Below, piece by piece: positions 2,327 through 18,116 of a stretch of DNA of 64,000 nucleotides. Each line of letters opens with the position of its first letter. Positions within the stretch are counted from its first letter, which is position 1. The stretch comes from a virus (taxonomy: Duplodnaviria; Caudoviricetes). Made by a program: the position numbers and the translations under genes. Location: positions 192,001-256,000 of the IMG/VR virus record IMGVR_UViG_3300031088_000008, one strand, 5' to 3'. Below the pieces are notes generated by a model, which was not told where the DNA came from, searched no databases, and saw only the letters and a list, made by a program, of their open reading frames with translations.

Positions 2327-2587
2327 GTGAGAAGTGTGGAAAGTCCCGTAAAGATGCTTAGCCAGGAACCGCATATCTTCCGCGTAACGCTGAGCTTTCT
2401 AGCAACCGGCGCTACCAAGATGGTTGTTGTCAGTTATGATGGCTCCATCGTGTACGTTATGGATGCCGATGATTCCTGGCTCCGGGAGTTCAAGTCCGGT
2501 GAGCACAAGATCTACGTGGACGGCCACTATGATCTGCTGGACTGCAATATCTATCTGGGCAAGCGACGGGAAGATCAGGATTGGTAG
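2327..2587 (+). CDS. Hypothetical protein
   Basis: 86 aa ORF overlapping the first array gene. Confidence 0.55.
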   Translation: MRSVESPVKMLSQEPHIFRVTLSFLATGATKMVVVSYDGSIVYVMDADDSWLREFKSGEHKIYVDGHYDLLDCNIYLGKRREDQDW

Positions 2588-2796
2588 AGCCCACCTTTGA
2601 ACAGCAATGGCCGCACCGTGTAGAACTGGCATGCTGTATTACCGACTACACGGATGCCTTTTCCTGGCTGTGGGCTCAGATCCTCAAGAACAATCTAGAG
2701 AGTCGAAAGGTCTTCACCACCTTTGGCCAGCGTAGCGTTGGCTTCAGCGACGAGCATCGACAACTGGCCATGCACTTCAAGCTACGATTTGGTTGA
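2581..2796 (+). CDS. FKLxW-family protein
   Basis: Ends AMHFKLRFG. Confidence 0.75.
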   Translation: MVEPTFEQQWPHRVELACCITDYTDAFSWLWAQILKNNLESRKVFTTFGQRSVGFSDEHRQLAMHFKLRFG

Positions 2797-2820
2797 CATA
2801 GAGTAGAGCGGTGCTAAGCC
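2791..2820 (+). promoter_or_regulatory. Host sigma70-type early promoter
   Basis: GGTTGACATAGAGTAGAGCGGTGCTAAG, same consensus as promoters at 34-60 kb. Confidence 0.65.
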
Positions 2821-2826
2821 AGTTCT

Positions 2827-3087
2827 ATGAAACAGATCGACAGCAAGTACCGCCAATTTCCCACCGCGCTGGAACTGCCTGATCTTCCCACTGATCGTCA
2901 GTTAGCCCGCAGCGAGGAAATGATTGCGTGGATCAAGGAAAGCAACCTAGTCTACCAAAAGGACTTTGTTTGCTTTGAGCACCAGACCGGCAAGCCCGGT
3001 CACAGCAAGAAGGTCACGATGGCCTGGGCCTTCCGCGATCGTGGCACCGCCCTTCACTTCAAACTAACCTTTGGTGGCTGGCGATGA
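2827..3087 (+). CDS. FKLxW-family protein
   Basis: Ends ALHFKLTFGGWR. Confidence 0.85.
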   Translation: MKQIDSKYRQFPTALELPDLPTDRQLARSEEMIAWIKESNLVYQKDFVCFEHQTGKPGHSKKVTMAWAFRDRGTALHFKLTFGGWR

Positions 3088-3584
3088 TGGTGGTCTGCAT
3101 TTCAATCCGCCAGTATTGCAGGGTTGACTACAATACACTCAAGATTCAGCTGGGCACTATGGTCAGTGGATGGATGGATGATTATCTGGTCTGGGAAGGT
3201 GTCGACCACGATTGGCCCGATGCTGATGCCGGGGAAGTTCGTCACCTTCAGACTTGGGTGGCCATTGATGACCACTGGGTAGCGTTCATTTGGAACAGCG
3301 ACGAAATCGGCACCATGTTCAAGAGTTATTTCACGGACTGGAATCCCTCGCACAAGCATCGAGTAATCATCGACGGTATCCGCTACACCGAGGGAACCCT
3401 CAACGGAACTGACATCTTCAAGTGGTTCAAGGAGCGCGACCTCGCCAACTCCGGAGACTACAGCTTTGCTCCTCACATAGATGATAGTACGACACTGGCC
3501 ACGGCCTTTGAGTTCAAGAATGCCCAGACTGCCATGTTGTTCAAGTTGACTTTCGGAGGTACTCATGTTCAAAGCCTTATCTAG
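3084..3584 (+). CDS. FKLxW-family protein, two-unit fusion
   Basis: Internal degenerate IGTMFKSYF plus terminal AMLFKLTFGG; ATGA overlap. Confidence 0.85.
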   Translation: MMVVCISIRQYCRVDYNTLKIQLGTMVSGWMDDYLVWEGVDHDWPDADAGEVRHLQTWVAIDDHWVAFIWNSDEIGTMFKSYFTDWNPSHKHRVIIDGIRYTEGTLNGTDIFKWFKERDLANSGDYSFAPHIDDSTTLATAFEFKNAQTAMLFKLTFGGTHVQSLI

Positions 3585-3897
3585 GGCCAACCGTGAGATG
3601 CAATTGGAAAGCTGGACACCCGTTACAATCACGATGGGAACCATGTTCCACTTGTTCGATCAGGAACGGGAAGACATGGCCACTCCTCTGGACGATCTAA
3701 AGTCCACGTCCGTTCTGTTGTTTCTGGAAACTTGGTGCAAGGCCCATATCAAACAGGGCTTCGCAGTCAAGAGGGAACCGGCATCACTGACCTCCTTTAC
3801 CCAAGTGGGGAAAGATGATAACACCGCATGTCTGATATTTTTGTTCAAATTGTCCAGCGAAGCCGTCCGCTTCAAGATGACGTGGGGCGGACGGTGA
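3565..3897 (+). CDS. FKLxW-family protein
   Basis: Ends AVRFKMTWGGR. Confidence 0.85.
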   Translation: MFKALSRANREMQLESWTPVTITMGTMFHLFDQEREDMATPLDDLKSTSVLLFLETWCKAHIKQGFAVKREPASLTSFTQVGKDDNTACLIFLFKLSSEAVRFKMTWGGR

Positions 3898-4139
3898 GTC
3901 ATACCTTTGTTAAATCCGATGACCACATCTGGGCATGGAACGACGAACCCTTTGTTATGCGAGCCAGCGACGAGGTGAAAAACTGGTTGTTGGCCCACGT
4001 GGGAAAGGAAATGACCTATAGCAGCAAGTGGGGCTGGAAAGGTTCCTGGCGGATACTCCGCATCGATGGCTGCGCTCACTTTGGCTTCGCGGATCCCAAG
4101 AAAGCCATGCTGTTCAAGTTGGCCTGGAGCGGCGTGTGA
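3894..4139 (+). CDS. FKLxW-family protein
   Basis: GTGA overlap start; ends AMLFKLAWSGV. Confidence 0.85.
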   Translation: MSHTFVKSDDHIWAWNDEPFVMRASDEVKNWLLAHVGKEMTYSSKWGWKGSWRILRIDGCAHFGFADPKKAMLFKLAWSGV

Positions 4140-4345
4140 GAAAGCAATTCATCTATGAGGTAAAGATCAGCTGGGCCAAGGATCCCTATGGTGACAATTC
4201 GATCGAGTGGCTGATTGAAAACAAGCTCAAGCCGGAACGTGACTGGCAGATTGACATGCACGGCGGAAAGCTGGACTATCTTAGCTTTTGGTTCCACGAC
4301 GCCAACAAAGCCCTGATCGTCAAGCTCACACTGGGTGGCATGTGA
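4136..4345 (+). CDS. FKLxW-family protein
   Basis: GTGA overlap; ends ALIVKLTLGGM. Confidence 0.8.
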   Translation: MRKQFIYEVKISWAKDPYGDNSIEWLIENKLKPERDWQIDMHGGKLDYLSFWFHDANKALIVKLTLGGM

Positions 4346-4566
4346 GTACCGAGTATCCATTCTGCAAGACGGTGGCGATCAGTACTCGTCAGGGTCGTGC
4401 CCGTTATCCTGAACTCGTAAAATGGCTTGAGGATCAAAACTGGTCCGAGGGCTTTGATTACTCCGTGGATCTCCTATACGGTGAGCCCATGGGTGATCCG
4501 GTTGCTTGGCAGTTTGCCTTTGATGATGCGCGGAAGGCTGTGGCCTTCAAGCTGGTATGGGGATGA
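4342..4566 (+). CDS. FKLxW-family protein
   Basis: GTGA overlap; ends AVAFKLVWG. Confidence 0.85.
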   Translation: MSTEYPFCKTVAISTRQGRARYPELVKWLEDQNWSEGFDYSVDLLYGEPMGDPVAWQFAFDDARKAVAFKLVWG

Positions 4567-4856
4567 AGAACGCCCAGCAGCGCCTGGCTGCTCTTCCCTA
4601 CCATATAATCGTGCCTGGGGTCTGGCATGAGGATCCCATATATGATCGTCTGATCGACGCCATCAACTGGTTGTATGATGATGGTCCGCAATCCACTGAT
4701 TGGTTTGTACACCAGTGTGAAGATGGTATCTTCATAGATAAGAAGAACAAGTACCAGATGTATCCAAGGAAAACAACTGCCTACACGTTCGCGTTCAGGA
4801 ATCGAAACGAAGCCGCGTTATTCAAATTGTTGTGGTTTTATAAATTGAAGTATTGA
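4563..4856 (+). CDS. FKLxW-family protein
   Basis: ATGA overlap; ends AALFKLLWFYKLKY. Confidence 0.85.
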   Translation: MKNAQQRLAALPYHIIVPGVWHEDPIYDRLIDAINWLYDDGPQSTDWFVHQCEDGIFIDKKNKYQMYPRKTTAYTFAFRNRNEAALFKLLWFYKLKY

Positions 4857-4890
4857 AAGTGCGCCTGCTACCTAGGAGGTAGGAGGAGCG

Positions 4891-5181
4891 ATGTTCAATT
4901 TGCCAGAAGAGTCCGATGGTGAGACCAACTATCACATCGTATATCTGAAATTGCCTGGTAGCGTCTGGTGTGAGAGTACCCAGGATCTCCGCGATGACAT
5001 TGATGCGTGGCTGGAAACCAATGATGTTGGTGACGACCAGTACAACAGCTTCTACTTCCGAGACCCAGAGAACGCACAAGAGGGTGACTGGTACCACAAT
5101 GCGGTGACCAGTAACAAATATATCTGTTACTGCTTCGCGGACCGCAACCACGCACTCCTATTCAAACTCACATTCAAGTAG
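4891..5181 (+). CDS. FKLxW-family protein (acidic)
   Basis: AGGAGG RBS; ends ALLFKLTFK. Confidence 0.85.
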   Translation: MFNLPEESDGETNYHIVYLKLPGSVWCESTQDLRDDIDAWLETNDVGDDQYNSFYFRDPENAQEGDWYHNAVTSNKYICYCFADRNHALLFKLTFK

Positions 5182-5183
5182 TC

Positions 5184-5213
5184 GCTTGACACTGGAAACC
5201 CTGGTGCTACAAA
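5184..5213 (+). promoter_or_regulatory. Host sigma70-type early promoter inside the array
   Basis: CTTGACACTGGAAACCCTGGTGCTACA. Confidence 0.65.
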
Positions 5214-5219
5214 GCTGGC

Positions 5220-5501
5220 ATGAAGCGTCTAGTTGATCCTCTCGTGGCAGAAGGCCATAAGGTATTCGTATCCTATGATAGCAGCGCCTTTGAGACTGTG
5301 AAGGTCTCCACTTCCAAGGGGTTCAGCTATACGAGGAGTCGTAGTCCAACAGCTGGATTCCAAGCGTGGCTACAGGACACTGCCGGTCCTCTTGGTATTC
5401 TCTGGACCACGACCAAGGATGAAGAGGGCAAGGGCTTGTTTATCTTTTTCTACAGGTCCAGTCACGCTATGCTATGCAAGCTCACTTGGGGAGGATCATG
5501 A
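5220..5501 (+). CDS. FKLxW-family protein
   Basis: Ends AMLCKLTWGGS. Confidence 0.85.
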   Translation: MKRLVDPLVAEGHKVFVSYDSSAFETVKVSTSKGFSYTRSRSPTAGFQAWLQDTAGPLGILWTTTKDEEGKGLFIFFYRSSHAMLCKLTWGGS

Positions 5502-5785
5502 CGCACGTCTGCATCAAGGTCAATGACGAGATTTGGGATGGCTACGGTCTCCGCCTCGTCATGCACGACTGGCTGGTGCAGAATGTAGGTCAACAGGCCA
5601 GCGACATGACGGATTATACATGGAGCCGGAAAGCTGCCTTTTATCTGAGGGCCAGCGAGAGTTCCATTGATCCCATGTATCTGGCAACCGGTGATCGCCA
5701 GAATGGTCCAGCAAAATTCCTTCACTTCAAGTTCAAAGACCCCGCGAAGGCTATGATGTTCAAACTTGCATGGGGTGGTCGATGA
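5498..5785 (+). CDS. FKLxW-family protein
   Basis: ATGA overlap; ends AMMFKLAWGGR. Confidence 0.85.
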   Translation: MTHVCIKVNDEIWDGYGLRLVMHDWLVQNVGQQASDMTDYTWSRKAAFYLRASESSIDPMYLATGDRQNGPAKFLHFKFKDPAKAMMFKLAWGGR

Positions 5786-6036
5786 CTATTCGGGATAATG
5801 TGATCATCACAACCATCTTCATACCCACGGACAGGTTTCCCTGGAAGCTAGTCAAGGACGATGATGGAGTGGAGCGAAAGCTCTATGATGTCACAGCCGA
5901 ACCTCTAGCAACTGTGGTGTCCATGAACACTGTGTGGGGATTCAACGACAGCACAGATAGCGTGATGATATCATTTCTAGAGGGTTGTGATCTGGATAAG
6001 GTCATGTTATTCAAACTGACTTGGGGAGGATTGTAG
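5782..6036 (+). CDS. FKLxW-family protein
   Basis: ATGA overlap; ends VMLFKLTWGGL. Confidence 0.85.
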   Translation: MTIRDNVIITTIFIPTDRFPWKLVKDDDGVERKLYDVTAEPLATVVSMNTVWGFNDSTDSVMISFLEGCDLDKVMLFKLTWGGL

Positions 6037-6299
6037 TGGCCGACCAGCGTGTGATGCGAAATCTCTTTTACGTCTCGATCATCAAGCGAGCGGAGCTCTT
6101 TCATCAGCTGGCCGACCAGGTCTGCGCTCGAATGGGCCCTCCGCCAGAAGGCATTGAAGCAATGCACCGTCATTTGGAAAAGAGTCACGAGGACGATCTC
6201 CGGTGGCTGGTGGACAACGACGTACAGGTCACCATGAAGATGATCGACCTTATCTCCCAGCGGACTGCGGAGATCAGGAGCAAGTTGATTGCAGACTAG
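6036..6299 (+). CDS. Hypothetical helical protein (non-family passenger in the array)
   Basis: TAGTG overlap after GGAGG; lacks the motif. Confidence 0.65.
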   Translation: MADQRVMRNLFYVSIIKRAELFHQLADQVCARMGPPPEGIEAMHRHLEKSHEDDLRWLVDNDVQVTMKMIDLISQRTAEIRSKLIAD

Positions 6300-6624
6300 C
6301 TATAAGATGGTCTGGGATCGGGGCAATCCACTCAAGGTGGTTGTCGAGGGTTGTGTTCCTGAGAACTCCTTTGTGTTGCGCGGACCTGAGACTCCCGAGG
6401 AACGGCTTGCACGAAAGGCTCAGGAAGCTGCCAACACTCATATGGAAAATCTAGCTCAGCTTTTCCGAAATCACTTTGACAGTCGGTGGCGTGCCAGTGA
6501 TCTCTATCCATGGATGGAAGAGAACGCACCCGGCTACAAAGTTGGAGTATCCAACAAGAGCGGTGCCATTTTGGTATTCCAAGAAAAGCATCACGCTATG
6601 ATGTTCAAGCTAGCCTGGTCATGA
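6289..6624 (+). CDS. FKLxW-family protein
   Basis: Ends AMMFKLAWS. Confidence 0.85.
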   Translation: MQTSYKMVWDRGNPLKVVVEGCVPENSFVLRGPETPEERLARKAQEAANTHMENLAQLFRNHFDSRWRASDLYPWMEENAPGYKVGVSNKSGAILVFQEKHHAMMFKLAWS

Positions 6625-6854
6625 GTGTCAACGTCGTCCTGCCTTTTAGTACCTGTGCTAGTTCTTCAAGCAATGGGTCGGTGAAAGTCCATCTCAACCC
6701 AGATATTTTGGATTGGCTCGCTGACAATGCGCCCCCAATCAGCCAGAAGGTAAACTGGATGTTGGGTCGCGATTACAGTCGATGGCAGGTAATGTTCAAC
6801 CTCCCCGATAAACACACCGCTGTCTTGTTCAAATTGACTTTTGGAGGCCGTTGA
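6621..6854 (+). CDS. FKLxW-family protein
   Basis: ATGA overlap; ends AVLFKLTFGGR. Confidence 0.85.
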   Translation: MSVNVVLPFSTCASSSSNGSVKVHLNPDILDWLADNAPPISQKVNWMLGRDYSRWQVMFNLPDKHTAVLFKLTFGGR

Positions 6855-6869
6855 CCCCATAATGGGTTA

Positions 6870-7307
6870 ATGCGTATCCTGGAACACTTCGACGTTAAAT
6901 TCTCTGGTCCGTTGAAAGCGACAACTCGTAGCCGCTTCACGCTCCAGAATGACGACGGTACAATCTTTGATGTCATGATCCCCGGTGAGGAAAAACTCCT
7001 CGCGGCATTTCGGTGGATGGGCGAGAATGATTGCCTTCGTCATCTGAGATCCGTCGAGCCTGAATACCATGATAATCTCAAGGATATCATGAAGATTGAG
7101 GAATACAACACCCAGGTTCGAGAACACGCTCATCTGGTTGGAAGTCTTCAAACAGGAATCAACTATAACAATTACTCGCCCCAACATTACTCCAGTAATG
7201 GATATCCAATACCGCAGCTTCAACCTGTTCCCTCTGCGGTCTATGAGTGTACGTGGACCTTCTACAGCAAGGAACACGCAGTGATGTTCAAGTTGGCGTG
7301 CGGCTGA
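6870..7307 (+). CDS. FKLxW-family protein with long insertion
   Basis: Ends AVMFKLACG. Confidence 0.8.
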   Translation: MRILEHFDVKFSGPLKATTRSRFTLQNDDGTIFDVMIPGEEKLLAAFRWMGENDCLRHLRSVEPEYHDNLKDIMKIEEYNTQVREHAHLVGSLQTGINYNNYSPQHYSSNGYPIPQLQPVPSAVYECTWTFYSKEHAVMFKLACG

Positions 7308-7672
7308 TGAAACTCATCGAGAAACATCATCAGTGGTATATTGTTCCCAGCGATGGAGAAATGTTCTTTGCCTGGGAAGCCATTGATGCTGAAGTGCCCA
7401 CGCATATTCGTGCCAATCCCCGCATCTTACCTTTTCTTGCCGAATGGATGGATAACACCTGTCCCGGTCGATGGGGAACGGCATGGATGGATAAAGGCAG
7501 GGCTATCTGGATTGAGGACCCCAGTGTCTTTCAATTGTTCAAGTTAGCCTGGCACGATCACGCCGATATCCAGATAGTAGTGATGCCGGAGATCACGGCC
7601 TTCTACTGCCCCTATATTCCACTGACGATCACGAGTGCAATTCCACAGGTGGGCGATGGCGAGGAGGCTTGA
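7307..7672 (+). CDS. FKLxW-family protein with C-terminal gp23-like peptide
   Basis: FQLFKLAWH followed by AFYCPYIPL. Confidence 0.8.
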   Translation: MKLIEKHHQWYIVPSDGEMFFAWEAIDAEVPTHIRANPRILPFLAEWMDNTCPGRWGTAWMDKGRAIWIEDPSVFQLFKLAWHDHADIQIVVMPEITAFYCPYIPLTITSAIPQVGDGEEA

Positions 7673-7904
7673 CGGCGTTCGGGTCGTGATACCCAAGAGC
7701 CGCGTCTGCATTATAGATGAACACGGCTTCGACGACAGTCTCTCGGACGAGTGCTGGGACTGGATCCAAGAAAACATTGGCGCATGGGGTGTGGACTGGG
7801 AACATGGCGAATGTTGGATGTTCGAAGATTATGGGATGACAAGTTTGGAATTTCACTTTAAGAGAGCTTCCGATGCAATGTTGTTCAAACTCACCTGGGC
7901 CTAG
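7656..7904 (+). CDS. FKLxW-family protein
   Basis: Ends AMLFKLTWA. Confidence 0.85.
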   Translation: MARRLDGVRVVIPKSRVCIIDEHGFDDSLSDECWDWIQENIGAWGVDWEHGECWMFEDYGMTSLEFHFKRASDAMLFKLTWA

Positions 7905-8157
7905 CTATTGGGATTTTCCGCTTCCCAATAAAAAGCTCTATCGGGATCTCAGTTGGCGGGCTGAGGATGATGCCAGTCGTTTATTCGATCAGGAAATGAA
8001 GGACTGGCTAGACCAGCACAACTTCTCCTACAATGGCAGGTTTGTTCATGCCTCCACGGATCTCAGCCAGTATGGCGAACAAGTCTATTCCTGGAGGCTT
8101 ATGATTCGACTCTATGATTCCAAAGCTGCCGTGCTATACAAGCTGACATGGATCTAG
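7873..8157 (+). CDS. FKLxW-family protein (start uncertain)
   Basis: Ends AVLYKLTWI. Confidence 0.75.
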   Translation: MQCCSNSPGPSYWDFPLPNKKLYRDLSWRAEDDASRLFDQEMKDWLDQHNFSYNGRFVHASTDLSQYGEQVYSWRLMIRLYDSKAAVLYKLTWI

Positions 8158-8438
8158 AAGCTACCATTCACACCATTGAGGTGCCAGTCAACGCCGAGTG
8201 CATTGATCGCGCTGGCCGATGGCTCGCAGAGCGTCTGGGTGAGCCCGGATGGAAAAGCAAGCCCCGCACCAACGAACATGGCGATGTGGCCTTTGATGCG
8301 TCTCGTATCTATATGGAAGACGTGCTTTGGGACGCATACGTCAACCCCAGCAGCTTTCGCGCTTTCTTTTTGATCAAAGAAAACGACAACCTTGCCATGT
8401 TGTTCAAGCTGACCTTTGGAGGACAGAATGCTGATTGA
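8148..8438 (+). CDS. FKLxW-family protein
   Basis: Ends AMLFKLTFGGQNAD. Confidence 0.85.
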   Translation: MDLEATIHTIEVPVNAECIDRAGRWLAERLGEPGWKSKPRTNEHGDVAFDASRIYMEDVLWDAYVNPSSFRAFFLIKENDNLAMLFKLTFGGQNAD

Positions 8439-8853
8439 GGAAGTCAAGTGGCGCAAATGGCTGGGACTTCCCTACATCAGTGTTCAGGGGGAATGGCTGG
8501 AAGAGTTCTATCAGCGAAAGCTCAATCAGGGAGATGTCTCGAGCGCACGATGGACTGGTGGCTTCGAGGAATACCGCTGGGCAAAACCCATAAGGGATTG
8601 GCTCCAGGAAAGTGGCGGACGTTACAAGCTAGAAAAGTGTGGGCAAGCCAGCGACTTCGCGGTTGGAAGGCAAGCTAAGATCTGGTTTCGTGATATGAAG
8701 AATGTCACGATGTTCAAGCTGGCTTGGGGTGGGGCAAAGAAGCCTGAGGATCCGCCAGTTGTGTTTGGTGTTACGAGAACTCTCGTCAAGGCCAAGAGTA
8801 GAAAGCTGAAGGGCACTTGGTCCCTTCAGCCTCCTGAAAAATCTACGAAGTAA
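8428..8853 (+). CDS. FKLxW-family protein with C-terminal gp23-like peptide
   Basis: VTMFKLAWGG followed by VTRTLVKAKSRKLKGTWSL. Confidence 0.8.
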   Translation: MLIEEVKWRKWLGLPYISVQGEWLEEFYQRKLNQGDVSSARWTGGFEEYRWAKPIRDWLQESGGRYKLEKCGQASDFAVGRQAKIWFRDMKNVTMFKLAWGGAKKPEDPPVVFGVTRTLVKAKSRKLKGTWSLQPPEKSTK

Positions 8854-9294
8854 TTACTTGACCAGACCAGGAAGGTAACGACCGCCTGCTGGTGGAAGAG
8901 TCAAGACCTGCTGACGGTGACTGATGCCTCCCTTGAGACCAAAGCCAATGTGGACCCAACGGCGCTTTTCGTGGATAAGCTGGTCGAACTTTAGACCACC
9001 CTTGATCAGTGCGGCACAAATCTCATAGGGAGTTCCAAAGTCAGGGCTTACAAAGTCAACACCAAAGCCAAAGCTGTGAGCGGAAGTTACCACGCCACCA
9101 ACGGCACGGTTTACCGCATCACAACGGAAGCCACTGTTGACGCTGATTGGTGTGCCAAGAATTGCACGGACCTTTTCCATCATCTGAGCAGTGTGGGTCA
9201 AGTTTGCCAATTGTGCGGCGTTGGGAACATTCTTGATACCCGTTCCGGTAACGGTCATCTCGGCCAAACTAAAATGCGGTGTAAGCTGGGTCAT
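8854..9294 (-). CDS. Peptidase M15A-family endolysin/peptidoglycan hydrolase
   Basis: LTPHFSLAEM, NSGFRC..VN..VGG...SAH..G..VD, DQLIHE..WVHIG zinc motifs; AAGGAG RBS; TAAATA upstream. Confidence 0.9.
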   Translation of the reverse strand: MTQLTPHFSLAEMTVTGTGIKNVPNAAQLANLTHTAQMMEKVRAILGTPISVNSGFRCDAVNRAVGGVVTSAHSFGFGVDFVSPDFGTPYEICAALIKGGLKFDQLIHEKRRWVHIGFGLKGGISHRQQVLTLPPAGGRYLPGLVK

Positions 9295-9320
9295 GATCGA
9301 TCTCCTTTTGGGGTACAGAA

Positions 9321-9350
9321 TATTTAAGGAGATTTTCCACCCATTAAATA
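9321..9350. promoter_or_regulatory. Back-to-back TAAATA late-promoter boxes
   Basis: TATTTA 9321-9326 and TAAATA 9345-9350. Confidence 0.6.
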
Positions 9351-9354
9351 GGCT

Positions 9355-9585
9355 GTGGATGACCTTTTTGAATATCCCCCGCAAACTAGATCGATCAGGG
9401 TTCAGTTGCCTATGGTCAAGAGTTCCATGCACCACTATGCGGTTCGCACCTGGCTATTGGAGCAGACTTGGCAGGAATATGAAGACTGGATAATTGGTCG
9501 AGAGAGTTTTCACACCGGCATTTATGAGGTGTGGTTTACAGATGTGGGCAAGGCAGTATATTTCAAACTATGTTTCAGTATCTAG
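9355..9585 (+). CDS. FKLxW-family protein (divergent)
   Basis: Ends AVYFKLCFSI. Confidence 0.75.
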   Translation: MDDLFEYPPQTRSIRVQLPMVKSSMHHYAVRTWLLEQTWQEYEDWIIGRESFHTGIYEVWFTDVGKAVYFKLCFSI

Positions 9586-9821
9586 ACCGCAGGCTTGAAT
9601 ACTACTTCAGCCACTACATGGAACTGCCCTACAGCTTTCGCGGTCACTTCTTCCACAACCTATCCCAACGAGACACCGTGGTAGATCAGCTGGAAGAGAT
9701 GCTGCTCTCTTATGGCATCCGTGGGTGGGATTATCTTCTAATAGTACAGCAGGATCGTTTCTGCGTGTATTTTCAAAAACACAGTGCCGCAGTGCGGTTT
9801 TATCTAAATTGGTATCTGTGA
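9570..9821 (+). CDS. FKLxW-family protein (degenerate motif)
   Basis: Ends AVRFYLNWYL. Confidence 0.7.
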   Translation: MFQYLDRRLEYYFSHYMELPYSFRGHFFHNLSQRDTVVDQLEEMLLSYGIRGWDYLLIVQQDRFCVYFQKHSAAVRFYLNWYL

Positions 9822-10097
9822 AGCTTCTTTGGGGCGTCCTGAAGCATTCCAACATAAAAGAAACAACTGGGCAGTGCGGCGCTCTCCGAACTGAAATATC
9901 CGCCCCACATGCTCCATACCCGCGTCGGGACCAAATTCTCCATAGGTAACATAGGGGCGATACCAATTTACCAGCCCCCAATCCCCGCCATGGGCATCCA
10001 GCCACTCCTGTACTTTTTCGGACAGGCAACGTGTTTTGGCGCGCTTGGCTCCAAAGACACCGTTGTTGGCAAAGTGGACTGCTACTTCGTAATTCAC
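9804..10097 (-). CDS. FKLxW-family protein (degenerate motif)
   Basis: GTGA overlap; AQLFLLCWN. Confidence 0.75.
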   Translation of the reverse strand: MNYEVAVHFANNGVFGAKRAKTRCLSEKVQEWLDAHGGDWGLVNWYRPYVTYGEFGPDAGMEHVGRIFQFGERRTAQLFLLCWNASGRPKEASQIPI

Positions 10098-10330
10098 GGG
10101 TTCGCCAAAGAGTCCAGGCCATAAAAGCTCAACTTGAACATGGTCGCCCATGAAGCCTCCCGAAAACAATAGACCCTGAGGTCGCCAACTTCCTGAAAAT
10201 AATCCATGTAATCAACGGCGTTCATGTGAAGCCAGGCATCCGCCCTTGCCTCGAGCGACATGTCATACTCTGGAAGACCAACCTCGTGGGGATAGTCGGC
10301 TTGGATCATGCGAATATAGGCATTGGGCAT
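10094..10330 (-). CDS. FKLxW-family protein
   Basis: ATMFKLSFYG. Confidence 0.8.
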   Translation of the reverse strand: MPNAYIRMIQADYPHEVGLPEYDMSLEARADAWLHMNAVDYMDYFQEVGDLRVYCFREASWATMFKLSFYGLDSLANP

Positions 10331-10614
10331 TAGATGCTCCCACACCAGCGAAGCTTGAACAGCATGGCCGCATTGGCATCCGAAAAGCCAATTATCCGAC
10401 CACGTGCTGGATCACCTTTGGGCAAATTGTTGTTCCACTGTCGCCAGTAGCCCTGCAGGTTTTCCTCGCACCAGTCCCACACTTCATCGCGGATTTCATA
10501 TCCATCGGGAAACTTTGTGGCGCTGTGGTTGGTCCTCAGGTACTCTTTCCATTCAATGTACCGACACACCCGGTCATTGCTGTATGGTACGCTGATTGTG
10601 ACCTCAAATTCCAT
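10330..10614 (-). CDS. FKLxW-family protein
   Basis: AMLFKLRWCGSI. Confidence 0.85.
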   Translation of the reverse strand: MEFEVTISVPYSNDRVCRYIEWKEYLRTNHSATKFPDGYEIRDEVWDWCEENLQGYWRQWNNNLPKGDPARGRIIGFSDANAAMLFKLRWCGSI

Positions 10615-10632
10615 GCCACGTCCTAGCAGTCT

Positions 10633-10917
10633 TTAGCCCCAAGTCAACTTGAACAAGAGTGCCTTGTTGGGATCCTTAAAGTAGAAGTTGGTATCGGTAA
10701 CCAACAATGGAATGTCGTTTCTCCACATTCCAATCTCCCTCATGGTGTTCTTGGGGCCAACGTGTTCTATGAGCCAGTTCAAGACGTCTTCCCTGAGATG
10801 CAGGGATTTGATACGAAAGCCGTTTTCATCCACGATGGACCACACGCATTGGTTGGCAATGTTGGCGCAAAACCATCCGTTCTCGTCTTCGTCATCAAAG
10901 ACGCCAGGATTATTCAC
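10633..10917 (-). CDS. FKLxW-family protein
   Basis: ALLFKLTWG. Confidence 0.85.
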   Translation of the reverse strand: MNNPGVFDDEDENGWFCANIANQCVWSIVDENGFRIKSLHLREDVLNWLIEHVGPKNTMREIGMWRNDIPLLVTDTNFYFKDPNKALLFKLTWG

Positions 10918-11185
10918 TGGCCCACCTCATCTTAAACAGCTGGGCGTCCCGCATCTCGGCAAAGAACCAAATGATGTGCTCGTCAATCGTCCTAAGACCC
11001 ATCTTGCTACCAGAGAGAACATCCTCTTTGGTCAGGATGGCGCCCGTTCGGACCAGCATTAGGTCGTAGTCGCCCTCGATGGTTGCAAGCCAGGCATAGA
11101 TCTCGTCAAGCCATGTCCCACGATGTTCCTGGCTATCTGGATTAGGAACAGGCATCATCACGCAATGGCCGGTAAAAACTGTCAT
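10910..11185 (-). CDS. FKLxW-family protein
   Basis: AQLFKMRWASE. Confidence 0.85.
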   Translation of the reverse strand: MTVFTGHCVMMPVPNPDSQEHRGTWLDEIYAWLATIEGDYDLMLVRTGAILTKEDVLSGSKMGLRTIDEHIIWFFAEMRDAQLFKMRWASE

Positions 11186-11472
11186 AGAAACTTCAACTTG
11201 AAAAGAGCCGCGCGGCCTCGATCACTAATGGACAAGTGCCAGTGATCATAGACATTACACCAGAGTTGATATGTACTCGATCCAATAACCAACAGGGCAT
11301 CATCACTTAAAAAGTACCAGGGAGCCAGGCCGATACTCTTAGGCTTCATAATTTGGGCACTGCTCACACATAGGCGGTCAGTTGGCGGATTGAAATGGTC
11401 GTGACTGTACCAGAGCCACCCATCTTTGTTTATGGTGTCAATGCGATGTGGTAGCATGAAGGTTGTGCTCAT
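11182..11472 (-). CDS. FKLxW-family protein
   Basis: AALFKLKFL. Confidence 0.8.
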   Translation of the reverse strand: MSTTFMLPHRIDTINKDGWLWYSHDHFNPPTDRLCVSSAQIMKPKSIGLAPWYFLSDDALLVIGSSTYQLWCNVYDHWHLSISDRGRAALFKLKFL

Positions 11473-11475
11473 AGC

Positions 11476-11739
11476 TCAGGCATTCTGTATGTGGTGATAC
11501 CATCGAAGCTTGAAAATCATACCATCGCTGTTCTTGTAGAAGAGGATGTGGGTCTCAAACACCTGTGCCTTTTGGTGCTTTCCCTCGGAAGCCTTTTCGT
11601 TGTGCTTCCACTCCAATCCATACTCCGTGATCCCGCTATCGTCGAGCCAATCCTGAACTTCATAGGGGAGACGAGGTGGTGCGAGTTCCTCGTTGCGGTT
11701 TCCCCACACGTGGTAATCTTTGATAATGAACTGAATCAT
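11476..11739 (-). CDS. FKLxW-family protein
   Basis: GMIFKLRWY. Confidence 0.85.
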   Translation of the reverse strand: MIQFIIKDYHVWGNRNEELAPPRLPYEVQDWLDDSGITEYGLEWKHNEKASEGKHQKAQVFETHILFYKNSDGMIFKLRWYHHIQNA

Positions 11740-11960
11740 CGATACCACGCCAGCTTGAACAACATGGCGTCCTTTCGATCTTTGAACAAGATGTCCTGCT
11801 GAAGGTGGTCAGGATCTGCGCTCTTGTGCTGATTGTCACCAAACTTCATCGTAACGCGCAGCTCATGCCCAGCCGCATGTAGCCAAGCCAAAAGAGCCTG
11901 AAACTCCAAGCGGTGAAGCCGGATGGTTACCTTGTTGGGAAAGTCTTTATTTCGCACCAT
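11736..11960 (-). CDS. FKLxW-family protein
   Basis: AMLFKLAWYR. Confidence 0.85.
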   Translation of the reverse strand: MVRNKDFPNKVTIRLHRLEFQALLAWLHAAGHELRVTMKFGDNQHKSADPDHLQQDILFKDRKDAMLFKLAWYR

Positions 11961-12255
11961 GGTCCCACCTCAACTTGAACAACATTAGGTCTCGACGAAA
12001 ACGAAAGTAGATGGGACGCATCCATCGTGGACCTGTGATGTCTATGAGACCAGTACCATCGGGACTTTCAACCCACCATCGACCACGAGGCAATTTGTCC
12101 AGCCACGCCCTAACATCTTCCCTCAGAGGATAGGCATCATAGTCGTCATATTGCTCGTCTTCAATTCGATCAAAGAATTCACTGGACCACTCGGCCACGG
12201 CACGCCATGCTCGCCCCTGGGCAATAAAGGATTTCCAGGAGTGGTGCGTTTCCAT
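11947..12255 (-). CDS. FKLxW-family protein
   Basis: LMLFKLRWDHGAK. Confidence 0.85.
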   Translation of the reverse strand: METHHSWKSFIAQGRAWRAVAEWSSEFFDRIEDEQYDDYDAYPLREDVRAWLDKLPRGRWWVESPDGTGLIDITGPRWMRPIYFRFRRDLMLFKLRWDHGAK

Positions 12256-12275
12256 ACCTGTACCGTAAAGCCAGG

Positions 12276-12494
12276 TTAGGCAAAAGTCAACTTGAACAAC
12301 ACGGCTGCCTGTGGATCGTCGAAGTGAAAGAGAATGGTATCCAGGCCAAAGGAAACGTCCCATCCATTATAGACCCTATTGGGATCCTTGCTCGCAAGGC
12401 AGAGCTCGGGAAAGTGGGCTATCAACCATTCAGCAGATTCCCTGTAGGTGCTCTGCCAATTTCCTCGATCAGAGATTTCCACCGTTACAGCCAT
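12276..12494 (-). CDS. FKLxW-family protein
   Basis: AVLFKLTFA. Confidence 0.85.
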   Translation of the reverse strand: MAVTVEISDRGNWQSTYRESAEWLIAHFPELCLASKDPNRVYNGWDVSFGLDTILFHFDDPQAAVLFKLTFA

Positions 12495-12721
12495 GAGAGT
12501 TTGAACAGCATGGCTGCCTCTCGGTCCTCGGTCTTAAAGCAGAAGTGACGCAGGAATGGAAATGGTGCGATACCCGAGGTGTCCACATTGGAACTCCAAA
12601 TGACATCAAGCGCCCGGTCGTCAAACCATTCGGCTATCTCAATCCAGTGATCATCGCTCTGATCCATTGGCATGCTGACGATTACGGGATGAGTTTGCAT
12701 GACCAGTGACATCAAGGGCAT
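12485..12721 (-). CDS. FKLxW-family protein
   Basis: AMLFKLSWL. Confidence 0.85.
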   Translation of the reverse strand: MPLMSLVMQTHPVIVSMPMDQSDDHWIEIAEWFDDRALDVIWSSNVDTSGIAPFPFLRHFCFKTEDREAAMLFKLSWL

Positions 12722-12954
12722 TATGCCCACCTCAATTTGAACATCATGGCATTTTGGGGCTCACGGAACTCAAACATGATCCCCACAAATTCCACATTGT
12801 TGTGGACGCCTGGCTTGCTCACCACGGTGCTAATAGGTCGTTCCTTGACATGTTCCACGGCCCATTCTACCAGATAGGTCTGAACAGCTTTTACCTTGTT
12901 GATCTCTTCATTGATCTCGCGAAGGCGCGCCAGAGATAGTTCAACTTCCCTCAT
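12721..12954 (-). CDS. FKLxW-family protein
   Basis: AMMFKLRWA. Confidence 0.85.
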   Translation of the reverse strand: MREVELSLARLREINEEINKVKAVQTYLVEWAVEHVKERPISTVVSKPGVHNNVEFVGIMFEFREPQNAMMFKLRWA

Positions 12955-13265
12955 GCCCACCTCAACTTGAATAGGACTGCTCTCGAGGGATCACGGAACA
13001 CAAAGAAGGCGTTATCGGTCCGTGTGGCGATCACCCAGCCCCAGTCCTCATGACCCACGCATTGTTCTCCCGAAGAGACGCAACCCGGTCCATCGTTCTC
13101 GCAGTGGTCAAGATGAAAGACCAATTCCACAATGTTGGTCCACCAACGGCTATCACCCAGGCCAACGTTTGCCCGGAGCCAGTCTAGGACTTCCGGCTTT
13201 AGGGTGATACCCATTTCCCAGTTGACCAGTCGCTCATAGGGCAGCTCAACAGTCGCGCTAGTCAT
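12951..13265 (-). CDS. FKLxW-family protein
   Basis: AVLFKLRWA. Confidence 0.85.
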   Translation of the reverse strand: MTSATVELPYERLVNWEMGITLKPEVLDWLRANVGLGDSRWWTNIVELVFHLDHCENDGPGCVSSGEQCVGHEDWGWVIATRTDNAFFVFRDPSRAVLFKLRWA

Positions 13266-13546
13266 CGACCACCAAATGTAAGTTTGAATAGAACAATGGT
13301 ATCAAGGTCCACTTCGTCACCAAAGTAAAAATGTAGATCCTTGCTTCCAAACTGCGCCAGCCATCCAGGAGTGAAGTCCCAGTTCTTGCCTCTGATATCC
13401 CCACCGTTGCCGTTGCTGGGTCCCAGACGCTCTCCCGCCCACATGACTGCATCGGCAATCTTCTCACCACTGGGATCGTGGAGTGTCACGACAGTAACCT
13501 TTGGGAGGTCTATATCGCTGGGAACCCAAAAGACTTGCTGCTTCAT
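13262..13546 (-). CDS. FKLxW-family protein
   Basis: IVLFKLTFGGR. Confidence 0.85.
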   Translation of the reverse strand: MKQQVFWVPSDIDLPKVTVVTLHDPSGEKIADAVMWAGERLGPSNGNGGDIRGKNWDFTPGWLAQFGSKDLHFYFGDEVDLDTIVLFKLTFGGR

Positions 13547-13842
13547 TGTCCACCCCAGCGAAGCTTGAACAACATGGCGTGTTTGGCATCCGCATCATTG
13601 AAGCAGATCATCCGGTGATTCCAGATGCCACCACTTCCCTCTCGACGCCTCTGGTCGTAATTGTAGCTCTTCACGCACCAATGCCCGGGAGGCAATTCCT
13701 TCAACGTGGATCCGCTGGGAATGTACTGGAGGTTCATCTCCTTGGCCCAGGTCTTTATCGCATCAAGGACCGCCACCCAGGGGTTTGAGGTGTCTTCAGA
13801 CAGGTTGTAGATCTGTTTGTCAGTGAGAGGAAAGGTGATCAT
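13543..13842 (-). CDS. FKLxW-family protein
   Basis: AMLFKLRWGGQ; GGAGG RBS. Confidence 0.85.
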   Translation of the reverse strand: MITFPLTDKQIYNLSEDTSNPWVAVLDAIKTWAKEMNLQYIPSGSTLKELPPGHWCVKSYNYDQRRREGSGGIWNHRMICFNDADAKHAMLFKLRWGGQ

Positions 13843-13862
13843 TAATCCTCCCTATAGAGTAT

Positions 13863-14123
13863 CTAGCCCCAAGTCAATTTGAACAGCATGGCAAAATCAG
13901 GATCGTTCTGAAAGTAAAAGACCCACTCATCACTGGTGCGACCAGAAGTCCAACCCCAGCCAACTCTGTCCTCACTATACAGTCGATCGTGCCCGCTCAG
14001 TCCCTTCTTTTCCACACACCAGGAAAGTGCATCATTCAAACTGGCTGTTGGAACGCGGACAAACGTGCAGGAATTGTACCACTCCATGCTCTTGCTCAGC
14101 GTGTCTCCCCAAAGGTCGCTCAC
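13863..14123 (-). CDS. FKLxW-family protein
   Basis: AMLFKLTWG. Confidence 0.85.
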   Translation of the reverse strand: MSDLWGDTLSKSMEWYNSCTFVRVPTASLNDALSWCVEKKGLSGHDRLYSEDRVGWGWTSGRTSDEWVFYFQNDPDFAMLFKLTWG

Positions 14124-14350
14124 TTTCCACCCCACGTTAGTTTGAACAACATGGCATCCCTGGCAAACTCATCAGGAAATACCACCGACCAGTCCTGCTC
14201 ACTGAGGCTGGCATTGGATCGAAAAGGAATTCCTCGACTATCCATAAAGTCAAGCACTTCGGGGCGAACTTTCCAATACCCACCCCGTCGATTTCTTGCC
14301 TCCAACCACTCGCAGGCTTTTGAAAGATCACAGTGAACACGAATACCCAT
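14120..14350 (-). CDS. FKLxW-family protein
   Basis: AMLFKLTWGGK. Confidence 0.85.
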   Translation of the reverse strand: MGIRVHCDLSKACEWLEARNRRGGYWKVRPEVLDFMDSRGIPFRSNASLSEQDWSVVFPDEFARDAMLFKLTWGGK

Positions 14351-14718
14351 CAGGGAATACTCAGCTTGAACAAGAGCGCATCGCTCTTCAATTCAAAGGC
14401 AATCTCACGGATGCTGCGGAACTTGTCGCGTATCTCATCAGTTACCATATTCAGTTTGCGGGCCAACCGCAACTCTTCCTGGTCATCACGGGTAACGGTT
14501 ATCTGTTCAATGGTGGTGAACCGACGATTGTTCACGTAGTACCAGCGACCCTTGCAGTTTGCCTCCAACCACTCAAATACATGGTCGGCAATGGGGACGC
14601 CATAGGTTGCCGGTCGACCATCAGGTCGCCAGCGATGGACCGGAGAAGTCTCCGAGTTGAAACCCTTACGGGAAAAGTACCGGACGCCATAGAGGGGCAC
14701 GAATGTCCACTCAATCAT
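14350..14718 (-). CDS. FKLxW-family protein
   Basis: ALLFKLSIP. Confidence 0.8.
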   Translation of the reverse strand: MIEWTFVPLYGVRYFSRKGFNSETSPVHRWRPDGRPATYGVPIADHVFEWLEANCKGRWYYVNNRRFTTIEQITVTRDDQEELRLARKLNMVTDEIRDKFRSIREIAFELKSDALLFKLSIP

Positions 14719-14948
14719 ATCCAGGTCAACTTGAACAAAAGTGCCACATCCTTGTCCTCTATGGTCACGATACAGTTCTGTGTGTCAAAGTCAATGTCGT
14801 GGTCCCACTTGTTGGGAGCCAGTCGGGCATCTAGCCAGTCGGCTATCTCGGGGTTGAATATCTGATAACTTCCCCAGGGGCTTTCCGTACAGTGGTGTTC
14901 CCTGTAGGCAACCTTATCACTGAGTATGATGCTGTACTCTACGCCCAT
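14715..14948 (-). CDS. FKLxW-family protein
   Basis: ALLFKLTWI. Confidence 0.85.
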   Translation of the reverse strand: MGVEYSIILSDKVAYREHHCTESPWGSYQIFNPEIADWLDARLAPNKWDHDIDFDTQNCIVTIEDKDVALLFKLTWI

Positions 14949-15193
14949 GTGAGTTTGAACAACATGGCAGCTTTGGGATCCTGGAAGGATATGGCATTGT
15001 TGGTGGGTTGCCCATCAACAAAGGCGTAGACCCATATCCACTCACACTCCCCGGACCAACCACCAGCTTGATTTCCTCGTCCCACAAAGGTGGTCAACCA
15101 CTGAAAAACATCCTGGCGAATCCACCATCCACTACTGTAGGGGTGAGTGTCCCTATATAGGATGCTGCTGGGAATGGGGACCACACTATCCAT
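14939..15193 (-). CDS. FKLxW-family protein
   Basis: AMLFKLTWA. Confidence 0.85.
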   Translation of the reverse strand: MDSVVPIPSSILYRDTHPYSSGWWIRQDVFQWLTTFVGRGNQAGGWSGECEWIWVYAFVDGQPTNNAISFQDPKAAMLFKLTWA

Positions 15194-15549
15194 TAGCCCC
15201 AAGCCAGCTTGAACATCATCACGTCTTTACGACGCCGGAAAAGGATCCCACACTCCTCACCAAACTCACTGGGATGCTCGGTGGTCCAGTCCATGTAGTT
15301 CAAGCTATCGTGGAGCCAGTTACGGATATCTGGACGAAGGTAATCGTAGTTGGGATGAAAATCGTAGTTGTGGTTGTGGTCTTCACTCTCGAGGGTAAAG
15401 AGCTCATTGTCATAGCCAAAAGCCGAGTTGCTCTGCCGACCGCGAACCAGCGAGGGAGCATCCACCTTGGGCTTTCCAATGGCGGTCACGCGATAGCGAT
15501 AGTTCCAGGGCCACCAGGGGATACCAATGTCATGAATCTGTATTTTCAT
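15193..15549 (-). CDS. FKLxW-family protein
   Basis: VMMFKLAWG. Confidence 0.85.
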   Translation of the reverse strand: MKIQIHDIGIPWWPWNYRYRVTAIGKPKVDAPSLVRGRQSNSAFGYDNELFTLESEDHNHNYDFHPNYDYLRPDIRNWLHDSLNYMDWTTEHPSEFGEECGILFRRRKDVMMFKLAWG

Positions 15550-15790
15550 CAGCCCTGCTTTCTACGAGAAGAAAAATCAGTTGGGCGGTCCGGCGGTCCT
15601 GAAATGCCAGGTCGTGACGGTAGGAGGGGTTCATAGCCATCCACCAATCACGTCGCCACTCAAGACCCAGTTCCTCAAACCACAGGTCGATCTCCCAATC
15701 GAGATCGCCATTCATATTGGCCCACGTACTTGGCATGATGCTGCTGGGAATGCTTACCAGCCAGGAAGTTTGAGGACGCCGTCTAGCCAT
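15530..15790 (-). CDS. FKLxW-family protein (degenerate motif)
   Basis: AFQDRRTAQLIFLL. Confidence 0.7.
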   Translation of the reverse strand: MARRRPQTSWLVSIPSSIMPSTWANMNGDLDWEIDLWFEELGLEWRRDWWMAMNPSYRHDLAFQDRRTAQLIFLLVESRADENTDS

Positions 15791-15811
15791 CTTCCTCTCT
15801 ATAGAGCAGAA

Positions 15812-16093
15812 CTATAACCAAGTCAACTTGAACAAGAGGGCATCAGAGGCTTCCCGGAAACCAAAGGAAACTCCAATGACTTCTCGGTGAGGCTCCCAAA
15901 CACTGGAGTTTCTATGAAGCAACTCAATGGTAGCGTGGCTACGGGTAAAAGAAGTAAGCCACTCGCATAGCTCATCAGTTGGAACTATCTGGTATCCCCG
16001 GGGCTTTCCCCACTCCAATCCCCGGGGAAGAGAAGTGTGTCGGCGATTGTAATTTCCAAGTGCTCCTGGGAGCATGATCGAGAGTTCATACAT
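15812..16093 (-). CDS. FKLxW-family protein
   Basis: ALLFKLTWL. Confidence 0.85.
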   Translation of the reverse strand: MYELSIMLPGALGNYNRRHTSLPRGLEWGKPRGYQIVPTDELCEWLTSFTRSHATIELLHRNSSVWEPHREVIGVSFGFREASDALLFKLTWL

Positions 16094-16114
16094 AAGCCCA
16101 CTATAGGAGTGGAC

Positions 16115-16459
16115 TTATCCCCACGTCAATTTAAAGAGCACTGCATCGCTCGGGTTAGGAATGTAAACTCCACACTTCGCAGCATAGGTTGCTAGACCCC
16201 AATCTTCATCAGATTCAGGAACCTTGTATATTGAACATAGTTCATAGGCTATGTTGTTAGCAATGAGCCAATTCTTTTCTCGACAAGTTTCGGTGCTATC
16301 CCACCAGAATAGAAATCCAAACTCTATAGAGCCTGCAGGATCCCCTACAAACATGGGTCTGAACTCAAAACTGTCACCGGTGATGTCAAGTAGCTCACGA
16401 TGACTATGCTTGATCGGAAAAATCTGATTGGGGTTCCACCCCGGATGAGGCCGCTTCAA
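16115..16459 (-). CDS. FKLxW-family protein
   Basis: AVLFKLTWG. Confidence 0.85.
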   Translation of the reverse strand: MKRPHPGWNPNQIFPIKHSHRELLDITGDSFEFRPMFVGDPAGSIEFGFLFWWDSTETCREKNWLIANNIAYELCSIYKVPESDEDWGLATYAAKCGVYIPNPSDAVLFKLTWG

Positions 16460-16935
16460 AACAGCGGCCTCATGGACCAGAGGAAGTCGATGGCATTGGA
16501 GATTGTCGAGACCGCGGTAATCTCATCAGAGTGACCTGCGAAACTCAAGTCCATACGGACCACTTTGTTTTTGGAATAAACTGATGCAGTCGATGCACCA
16601 ATCGCTTGTCGTATGGAGGAAGCCTTTGCGCTGGCAATCTGTGGATCTTCATAGAAGCGGTACAGACACACGCGAATAACACTGTTACTTGGGTCACCCT
16701 GAAAAGCGAGCGTGGGCTGTCCTAGCTGAGAAAGGATGGTCTCCCTACCAAGATCACCAGTGGTCTTGCGACACGCTCGAATCCGGTCGTAACCTTTGGC
16801 TTTATCTTGATCTGCCATTTTGTAGCTCTGACCGTTCAGCGTGATAAAGTCTCCCAAGGTCCCTGAGGAGATTCGCTGAAGCAGCGCAATGCTGGCATAT
16901 TCAGTGCATGAATTGATTAGGATTGATTTTGACAT
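16456..16935 (-). CDS. Hypothetical protein (non-family passenger with own promoter)
   Basis: 159 aa ORF; TTGACA-N17-TCTATA upstream at about 17038-17010. Confidence 0.65.
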   Translation of the reverse strand: MSKSILINSCTEYASIALLQRISSGTLGDFITLNGQSYKMADQDKAKGYDRIRACRKTTGDLGRETILSQLGQPTLAFQGDPSNSVIRVCLYRFYEDPQIASAKASSIRQAIGASTASVYSKNKVVRMDLSFAGHSDEITAVSTISNAIDFLWSMRPLF

Positions 16936-17056
16936 GGTGCGGTTCCCTATAAGAGAGGTTAGAGTTGAGTTAGAGTTTCCAACGCCGCACCATTGCGATC
17001 ATCTACCTCCTATAGAACACCGTTAACTCAGTATGTCAATTACGTTTTCTAATTGA

Positions 17057-17323
17057 CTAGCCCCACGTCAATTTAAAGAGCGTGGCAATCGCAGGGTCCT
17101 TGAAGGCGAAGACTACCTGACCAGGAACGACATCATTGCCATCGTCGTAGTCCTGAATGATATCCCACTCATCGACCTCAACGCGCTGCTGGTCTATCCA
17201 CTCCCAAAAGCCATCGGTTGCCCTATAGCCCTCATTGTAGTCGCTGGCCAGATTCCACCACACGACACCGGGTCCCGATGGATCGTAGTGGTCCTCTTTT
17301 ACTATGATGTGAACGTTGTGCAT
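17057..17323 (-). CDS. FKLxW-family protein (acidic)
   Basis: ATLFKLTWG. Confidence 0.85.
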   Translation of the reverse strand: MHNVHIIVKEDHYDPSGPGVVWWNLASDYNEGYRATDGFWEWIDQQRVEVDEWDIIQDYDDGNDVVPGQVVFAFKDPAIATLFKLTWG

Positions 17324-18093: not shown

Positions 18094-18116
18094 CTTTTCT
18101 CTCTATAGAGGAAGAG

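Follow-up and report, generated by a model that had tools for sequence, protein, structure and literature searches.

The last codons of some members of a family of small phage genes resemble ribosome-binding sites more closely than expected by chance, and for about one quarter of the family it is plausible that the C-terminal tail doubles as the next gene's Shine-Dalgarno (SD) sequence. The genes belong to the giant-phage record IMGVR_UViG_3300031088_000008 (Duplodnaviria; Caudoviricetes), which is 416,714 bp long and approximately 90% complete as estimated by CheckV; bases 192,001-256,000 of this record, a stretch of 64,000 nucleotides (nt) referred to here as the window, were analyzed. Between approximately 2.5 and 18.9 kb of the window lie two arrays, one per strand, of open reading frames (ORFs) of 70-140 amino acids (aa), each ending in the motif ...a[ML]LFKLtW followed by a tail that is short and variable. 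Where this tail contains Gly-Gly, its predicted pairing with the 3′ end of 16S rRNA equals or exceeds that of the ordinary start sites of the phage. We consider it probable that these junctions reflect ordinary operon packing, in which an intragenic SD sequence is combined with translational coupling. As such they are a new instance of a known arrangement that is usual for tightly packed bacterial and phage genes, and they call for no new mechanism; within the family the Gly-Gly tail is found alongside other solutions, and we do not regard it as a dedicated portable element.

To define the family, a profile was built from the C-terminal 60 residues and searched against stop-to-stop ORFs (E<0.01). 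This returned 97 family ORFs genome-wide, located at window positions 2533-18864 and at 40-odd further sites in the genome. A sequence-only reading of this DNA had proposed that a conserved Trp/Phe-Gly-Gly tail supplies the SD sequence for the following gene, citing four strings as examples. All four are present, three of them on the plus strand (TGGGGAGGATCATGA at 5487-5501, TTCGGAGGTACTCATG at 3552-3567 and TTTGGAGGACAGAATG at 8415-8430) and one on the minus strand (TGGGGTGGAAAGTGA, the tail of the gene 14350..14120, whose stop codon ends at 14120). To call the tail conserved, however, was an overstatement: a [WFL]GG tail is found in 12 of the 38 family ORFs with stops in 3084-14350 and in 24 of 97 genome-wide (26 under a looser pattern), and the residue immediately after Trp varies, with Gly the commonest (45/92 members) and A, L, H, S, Y and others making up the remainder. 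The G-rich cores of these tails are GGAGG (5), GGTGG (6) and GGCGG (1) in the window and GGTGG (12), GGAGG (8) and GGCGG (4) among the 24 genome-wide, so that the canonical GGAGG is in the minority. The predicted geometry of the junctions was borne out: in 11 of the 12 window tails the Gly-Gly codons are followed, 3-6 nt past the core, by an ATG or GTG that opens a frame of at least 60 aa, the junction being ATGA in five cases, GTGA in three, TAGTG in one and an ATG inside the upstream gene in two. Stop and start overlap by 4 nt or 1 nt at 9 of the 12 window GG-tail junctions and at 43 family junctions in total, and GG tails are associated with such overlaps (15/23, versus 28/74 for members without a GG tail; Fisher p=0.03).

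The phage itself makes use of canonical SD sequences. Across the upstream regions of 273 long ORFs, GGAG peaks at positions -11 to -9 (21, 20 and 16 occurrences versus approximately 1 expected); for GGAGG the first base lies at -12 to -9, with no instance at -8. Because the phage record contains no 16S gene, a generic anti-SD tail was assumed, from which the 16S tail of the host may differ. Using a 9-nt anti-SD in free register, the mean predicted pairing was -6.79 kcal/mol at overlaps with a GG tail (n=15), compared to -5.11 kcal/mol at the 273 long-ORF starts and -2.67 kcal/mol at 822 random coding positions; this test considered 10 residues per tail, and for this reason the GG tail with its stop at 3584 was wrongly counted as non-GG. 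A second score used a 13-nt anti-SD and allowed only the registers used by the phage's own genes. With this score the GG overlaps averaged -5.23, with 60% at or below -4, versus -3.02 for long-ORF starts and -0.76 for random coding positions, and 21% of the non-GG family overlaps were at or below -4. Thus, where a GG tail exists, its description as an SD look-alike of the next gene held.

Codon choice in the tails provides evidence of selection that is real but modest and model-dependent. Within long ORFs, the first codon of interior Gly-Gly pairs is GGA in 40 of 522 cases (8%) and GGT in 55%, whereas GGA accounts for 17.5% of all Gly codons; this reduction from 18% to 8% argues that GGAGG is counter-selected inside the genes of this phage. 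In contrast, 8 of 24 tails open their Gly-Gly pair with GGA, a four-fold excess over the interior pairs (p=3e-4). This Gly-Gly-specific background replaced a first-pass comparison to overall Gly usage (GGA first in 8/26 tails versus 17.5%, p=0.07). The codon used also varies with the geometry of the junction: GGA is found in 5 of 8 tails with a start at least 4 nt past the core versus 2 of 12 with a start at 3 nt (p=0.06), and in the 3-nt ATGA/GTGA geometry GGT dominates the first position. In the W-G-G-x-stop/ATGA arrangement, GGT creates GGGGUGG, a 7-base run in the preferred register of -11 (-8.1 kcal/mol), GGA places GGAGG at -8, a register of 6/123 long-ORF sites, and GGC reaches only -2.8. 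A register-aware model explains the use of GGT at 3 nt and of GGA at longer spacing by the SD register preference. A sample of 83 unique contexts from other viral contigs included 29 with the ATGA/GTGA-overlap geometry, and in these the first Gly codon was GGT in 24, GGC in 3 and GGA in 2; the frequency of GGT (24/29) exceeds both the 41% of Gly codons that are GGT elsewhere in these genes, in their bodies (p=5e-6), and the 55% of interior Gly-Gly pairs (p=0.002). Finally, when the register-restricted score was compared to a codon-pair-aware synonymous null, pairing was stronger than in the null for the GG overlaps (-5.23 versus -3.76, p=0.013) and for all 43 family overlaps (-3.23 versus -1.89, p=0.007).

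Several observations weigh against an SD function of the tails. A first synonymous test (9-nt anti-SD, free register, independent-codon null) gave no excess (-6.79 versus -6.91). Two synonymous models were thus tried and one was positive, and the positive result depends on the assumed 13-nt anti-SD, the register restriction and the codon-pair null. A tabulation of Gly codons in the tail versus elsewhere, which had been suggested as a check, showed GGA in excess over interior pairs; synonymous resampling was null in the first model. Paralogues and orthologues are, moreover, non-independent observations, and among 26 external Arg codons at the position before Trp, AGG was found in 12, AGA in 10 and CGN in 4, six identical copies included. 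For three of the 24 GG tails, the 14 nt adjoining the core contain no start. The GGNGG core lies only 3 nt from the start in 7 of 12 window cases and in 12 of 24 genome-wide, a distance seen for no GGAGG in the 273 long-ORF upstream regions. The 28 family overlaps without a GG tail have a mean pairing of -3.37, slightly stronger than the coding background of -2.67; the proposal that a G-rich tail serves as the SD sequence of the next gene is supported by predicted pairing where a GG tail exists and not at these overlaps, which pair weakly. In addition, GG tails are present in 55 of 145 diverse family representatives, and position 2 of three-residue tails is Gly in 49 of 55, even with a non-Gly residue at position 1.

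Constraint on the protein or on the RNA could each keep the Gly-Gly pair, and both are possible. If it is the protein that retains it, for instance to cap the terminal helix or to offer a recognition motif at the C terminus, the likeness to an SD sequence would be incidental and reinitiation would proceed without it. The recurrence of Gly in the tails of the diverse representatives, its standing as the commonest residue after Trp, the near-background pairing of the non-GG overlaps, the three GG tails that lack a nearby start and the null outcome of the first synonymous test all favor this explanation, as does the finding that the contribution of SD sequences to reinitiation ranges from essential to none (PMC6728339). 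Against it stand the four-fold GGA excess in the tails, the dependence of codon choice on geometry, and the association of GG tails with overlap junctions. The GG state is also unclustered on a tree of 88 members, although the tree is weak: 20 changes were counted versus 21.2 +/- 1.6 with shuffled labels, so that no subfamily signal is apparent and the tail state appears labile. In addition, the last helix of the AlphaFold model of the family ends at Trp, although the confidence of this model is limited (mean predicted local distance difference test score, pLDDT, of 68.6). We regard a purely protein-based origin of the tail as possible but on balance unlikely.

Based on these results we favor ordinary packing with translational coupling, which would operate as follows. 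The small family genes appear to be stacked such that each stop overlaps or nearly touches the next start (ATGA, GTGA, TAATG or TAGTG). Because of this overlap, the downstream SD sequence must fall within the upstream gene, in its final codons, and because the upstream genes are paralogues with the same C-terminal helix (...FKLTW) and a short tail, it would land repeatedly on the same residues. With three residues after Trp, the SD sequence would lie on Trp-Gly-Gly (TGG GGN GG); with one residue after Trp, it would lie on Arg(AGG)-Trp (GAGGTG). The G-rich stretch would then be paired by the 16S tail of a ribosome, either one that is terminating or one newly bound, and this ribosome would initiate at the overlapping ATG or GTG. 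From the sequences, their geometry, the predicted pairing and the codon statistics shown here, we infer the start sites, the relevance of the pairing in vivo and the coupling itself. The Arg-before-Trp (KLRW) members fit the second register: all seven in which Arg is coded by AGG have an ATG or GTG 2-5 nt past TGG, and the five with other Arg codons offer nearby just one candidate, an unlikely start: a GTG located 1 nt ahead of the last base of TGG. At one junction of this type (tail RWASE, GTG 10917), gene callers on other contigs give relatives of the gene that are 94-96 aa long. AGG also exceeds its share of Arg codons in the whole genome (p=6e-5), but this was dropped as evidence, since AGR is one mutation away from the consensus Thr codons ACR, which confounds the comparison, and since AGA matches AGG in frequency on other contigs.

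Among the 145 representatives, tail length has two peaks, at one residue (57 tails) and at three residues (55 tails). One further reading treats the residues after Trp as a translated ribosome-binding leader that belongs to the next gene, with motif and tail together forming a portable junction at which genes could be swapped while coupling is kept; the two peaks of tail length would then correspond to two SD registers for the overlapping start, GAGGTG on R-W or GGGGTG on W-G-G. We think this reading, including its account of tail length, unlikely. A DNA search of five related jumbo-phage records found only stretches of 26-53 bases in common with the arrays, located at motifs and junctions. 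The best of these matches is a 49-nt stretch, window 13521-13569, that is 88% identical in another jumbo-phage record and covers the motif, the tail WGGQ, the overlapping stop and start, and eight codons (MKQQVFW) at the beginning of the next gene; around this junction, at 13546, the gene bodies have diverged on both sides.

Packing with embedded SD sequences extends beyond the family. Sixty non-family 4-nt or 1-nt overlaps have a mean pairing of -5.14 in free register and of -2.39 with restricted registers, with 27% at or below -4. Four non-family overlaps have Gly-Gly within the last six residues, and in three of the four it is written GGAGG. Since non-family overlaps share the embedded SD, it is a genome-wide packing habit and not a property of the cassettes. 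This bears on the plug-and-play claim of the sequence-only reading. On that view, selection would maintain the tail as a ribosome-binding site that travels with its cassette, such that any gene inserted behind it would be translated at once. In keeping with that claim, three GG tails do stand before genes that are not of the family, one of which starts at GTG 6036 while the other two lie elsewhere in the genome. At a junction between a family gene and a conserved gene that begins with 'MAKKP...', moreover, GG is kept in seven other distinct contigs and in the viral contig L008, even as the upstream body falls to 19-64% identity and codons and tail length vary. The arrays also resemble the hyperplastic regions of T4-type phages (PMC2839356). 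However, 73 of the 97 members lack a GG tail, the non-family genes embed SD sequences likewise, and a second class of junction brings its own spacer and an intergenic SD, so the claim that each cassette supplies the signal for whatever follows it is not supported. An exchange inside the conserved motif DNA would, furthermore, be expected to send the tail with the downstream gene, the opposite of the cassette picture. We therefore consider the plug-and-play interpretation overstated and a portable element of this kind quite improbable. As to L008 (36.9 kb), both proteins flanking the junction that was checked are 100% identical to those of the window's genome, and the contig probably derives from this phage itself or from one almost identical to it.

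The second junction class is defined by a W-G-stop ending and a 20-nt spacer that contains a motif with a CTATAG core together with its own intergenic SD sequence. The motif, C[CT]TATAG[AGT]G with the palindromic core CTATAG, occurs at 19 sites in the genome, 14 of which lie within window 13851-19981, and several of the CTATAG-core sites are 8-12 nt ahead of start codons in W-G-stop junctions. At five W-G-stop junctions, TTGAC[TG] is found in Leu-Thr codons and is followed after 15-18 nt by TATAG[AGT]. A scan of window 1800-19500 for the sigma-70 consensus and for terminators revealed no enrichment (17 promoter-like sites versus 17.7 expected). The CTATAG-core motif is similar to promoters of single-subunit RNA polymerases in their initiation region; a search for a T7-like RNA polymerase (PF00940) gave no match in this genome, but since it gave none in the control genomes either, this negative carries no information.

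The arrangement has clear counterparts in the literature. In most groups of prokaryotes, overlapping genes typically have intragenic SD sequences ahead of them, which play a variable role in reinitiation (PMC6728339); in three of five pairs of E. coli genes, taking out the SD reduced reinitiation by 60-90% (PMC6728339). The pairs described there by Huber et al. (2019) share with the phage junctions co-directional overlaps of 4 nt (ATGA/GTGA) or 1 nt (TAATG/TAGTG) and an SD-like motif in the last upstream codons, no more than approximately 12 nt from the downstream start; the phage case differs in that the upstream genes are dozens of paralogues, that the SD recurs on W-G-G or R-W, and that coupling is presumed from sequence. 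SD-like hexamers are reported to be enriched in the C-terminal regions of genes and avoided in their interiors (Diwan and Agashe 2016, PMC4943179). The phage follows the same pattern, in that interior Gly-Gly pairs avoid GGAGG and gene ends near close neighbors use it, but here it concerns one genome, one gene family and one dipeptide. Gly-Gly coded by GGT-GGA has also been described as a cryptic ribosome-binding site in E. coli in the context of the SUMO tag (PMC11653089), where, as in the phage, a C-terminal Gly-Gly directly before an ATG acts like an SD sequence; that site is an accident of a recombinant fusion, whereas the phage sites are natural and recurrent. Finally, the PeSL cassettes (promoter-early stem-loop plus SD), which lie between small ORFs in T4-type phages (Arbiol et al. 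2010, PMC2839356), likewise involve arrays of small genes of unknown function with repeated junctions that end in an SD sequence and a start. PeSLs, as presented there, are intergenic and carry a promoter and a terminator stem-loop, whereas the GG-tail junctions have no intergenic DNA, and only the W-G-stop class of junctions is PeSL-like.

The family is represented in public data by 1,582 representatives of sequence clusters (E<=0.001). A Pfam scan of 40 members gave a single weak match in one of them (E=0.0095), none of seven members matched PHROGs, and a Foldseek search of the PDB with the family model returned nothing at E<=0.001. In the modelled fold, three strands are followed by a helix, then by a further strand and a second helix. 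When a single family member was used to search for related loci, one short contig was returned, and a text search of the literature for the letters of the motif yielded only chance matches in unrelated texts. The three top profile matches, P0005-P0007, are proteins of 1,659-2,701 aa; P0005 and P0006 each have 13 matched stretches, the best at approximately profile positions 22-51 (the 'WL...' helix region), and none are listed for P0007. These matches could reflect repetition of a portion of the fold, or else an artefact.

Coordinates of the junctions and arrays are collected in the table below. Proteins encoded in the window include T4-like baseplate proteins and tail proteins with immunoglobulin domains, alongside an M15 endolysin and a homologue of class-I tRNA synthetases. 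The gene for the M15-family endolysin (8854-9435, minus strand) lies between the small-gene array of the plus strand and that of the minus strand, and the phage class-I tRNA synthetase, of the Trp/Tyr type, is encoded at 50519-51538 on the plus strand (Pfam E=3e-65). A megablast search of window positions 1-20000 against the phage collection gave zero matches.

Table. Junctions at the ends of family genes and the two gene arrays, in window coordinates. Spacers are counted from the end of the core to the start codon; pairing is the predicted energy in kcal/mol.
Feature	Positions	Strand	Core	Spacer (nt)	Predicted start and junction	Pairing
FGGWR-stop	3073..3086	+	GGTGG 3073-3077	6	ATG 3084, ATGA overlap	
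FGGTHVQSLI-stop	3555..3567	+	GGAGG 3555-3559	5	ATG 3565, inside upstream gene (20-nt overlap)	-10.8
WGGR-stop	3886..3896	+	GGCGG 3886-3890	3	GTG 3894, GTGA overlap	
LGGM-stop	4334..4344	+	GGTGG 4334-4338	3	GTG 4342, GTGA overlap	
WGGS-stop	5490..5500	+	GGAGG 5490-5494	3	ATG 5498, ATGA overlap	-10.8
WGGR-stop	5774..5784	+	GGTGG 5774-5778	3	ATG 5782, ATGA overlap	
WGGL-stop	6025..6038	+	GGAGG 6025-6029	6	GTG 6036 of a non-family 87-aa ORF, TAGTG	-11.4
FGGR-stop (counter-example)	6843..6847	+	GGAGG		no start within 15 nt; next ATG 6870, 22 nt off	
FGGQNAD-stop	8418..8430	+	GGAGG 8418-8422	5	ATG 8428, inside upstream gene (11-nt overlap)	-9.3
FGGR-stop	13263..13273	-	GGTGG 13273-13269	3	ATG 13265, ATGA overlap	
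WGGQ-stop	13544..13554	-	GGTGG 13554-13550	3	ATG 13546, ATGA overlap	
WGGK-stop	14121..14131	-	GGTGG 14131-14127	3	GTG 14123, GTGA overlap	
RWA-stop, Arg(AGG)-Trp	12952..12963	-	GAGGTG 12963-12958	3	ATG 12954, ATGA overlap	
RWA-stop	12719..12733	-	GAGGTG 12733-12728	6	ATG 12721, TAATG overlap	
RWDHGAK-stop	11958..11971	-	GAGGTG 11971-11966	5	ATG 11960, inside upstream gene	
RWASE-stop	10915..10928	-	GAGGTG 10928-10923	5	GTG 10917	
W-G-stop class	13843..13862	-	CTATAG-core motif, then own SD GGGAGGA	20-nt spacer holding both	ATG 13842	-11.9
Plus-strand array, approximately 21 small paralogous genes (ORF lists, matches to family hidden Markov model)	2533..9585	+				
Minus-strand array, approximately 33 family genes, interrupted by a few non-family ORFs (ORF list, family hidden Markov model)	9804..18864	-				

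The junctions are of practical use for annotation, since they point to the probable starts of approximately 97 unannotated small genes. The gene family is an interesting object in its own right, with 97 copies in this genome, more than 1,500 clusters in public data and no known function. About one quarter of its genes carry the putative ribosome-binding site of the next gene in their last codons. They thereby offer a clean natural case in which a protein tail and a translation signal would occupy the same bases, with a codon signature in which GGAGG is avoided inside genes and tolerated at their ends.

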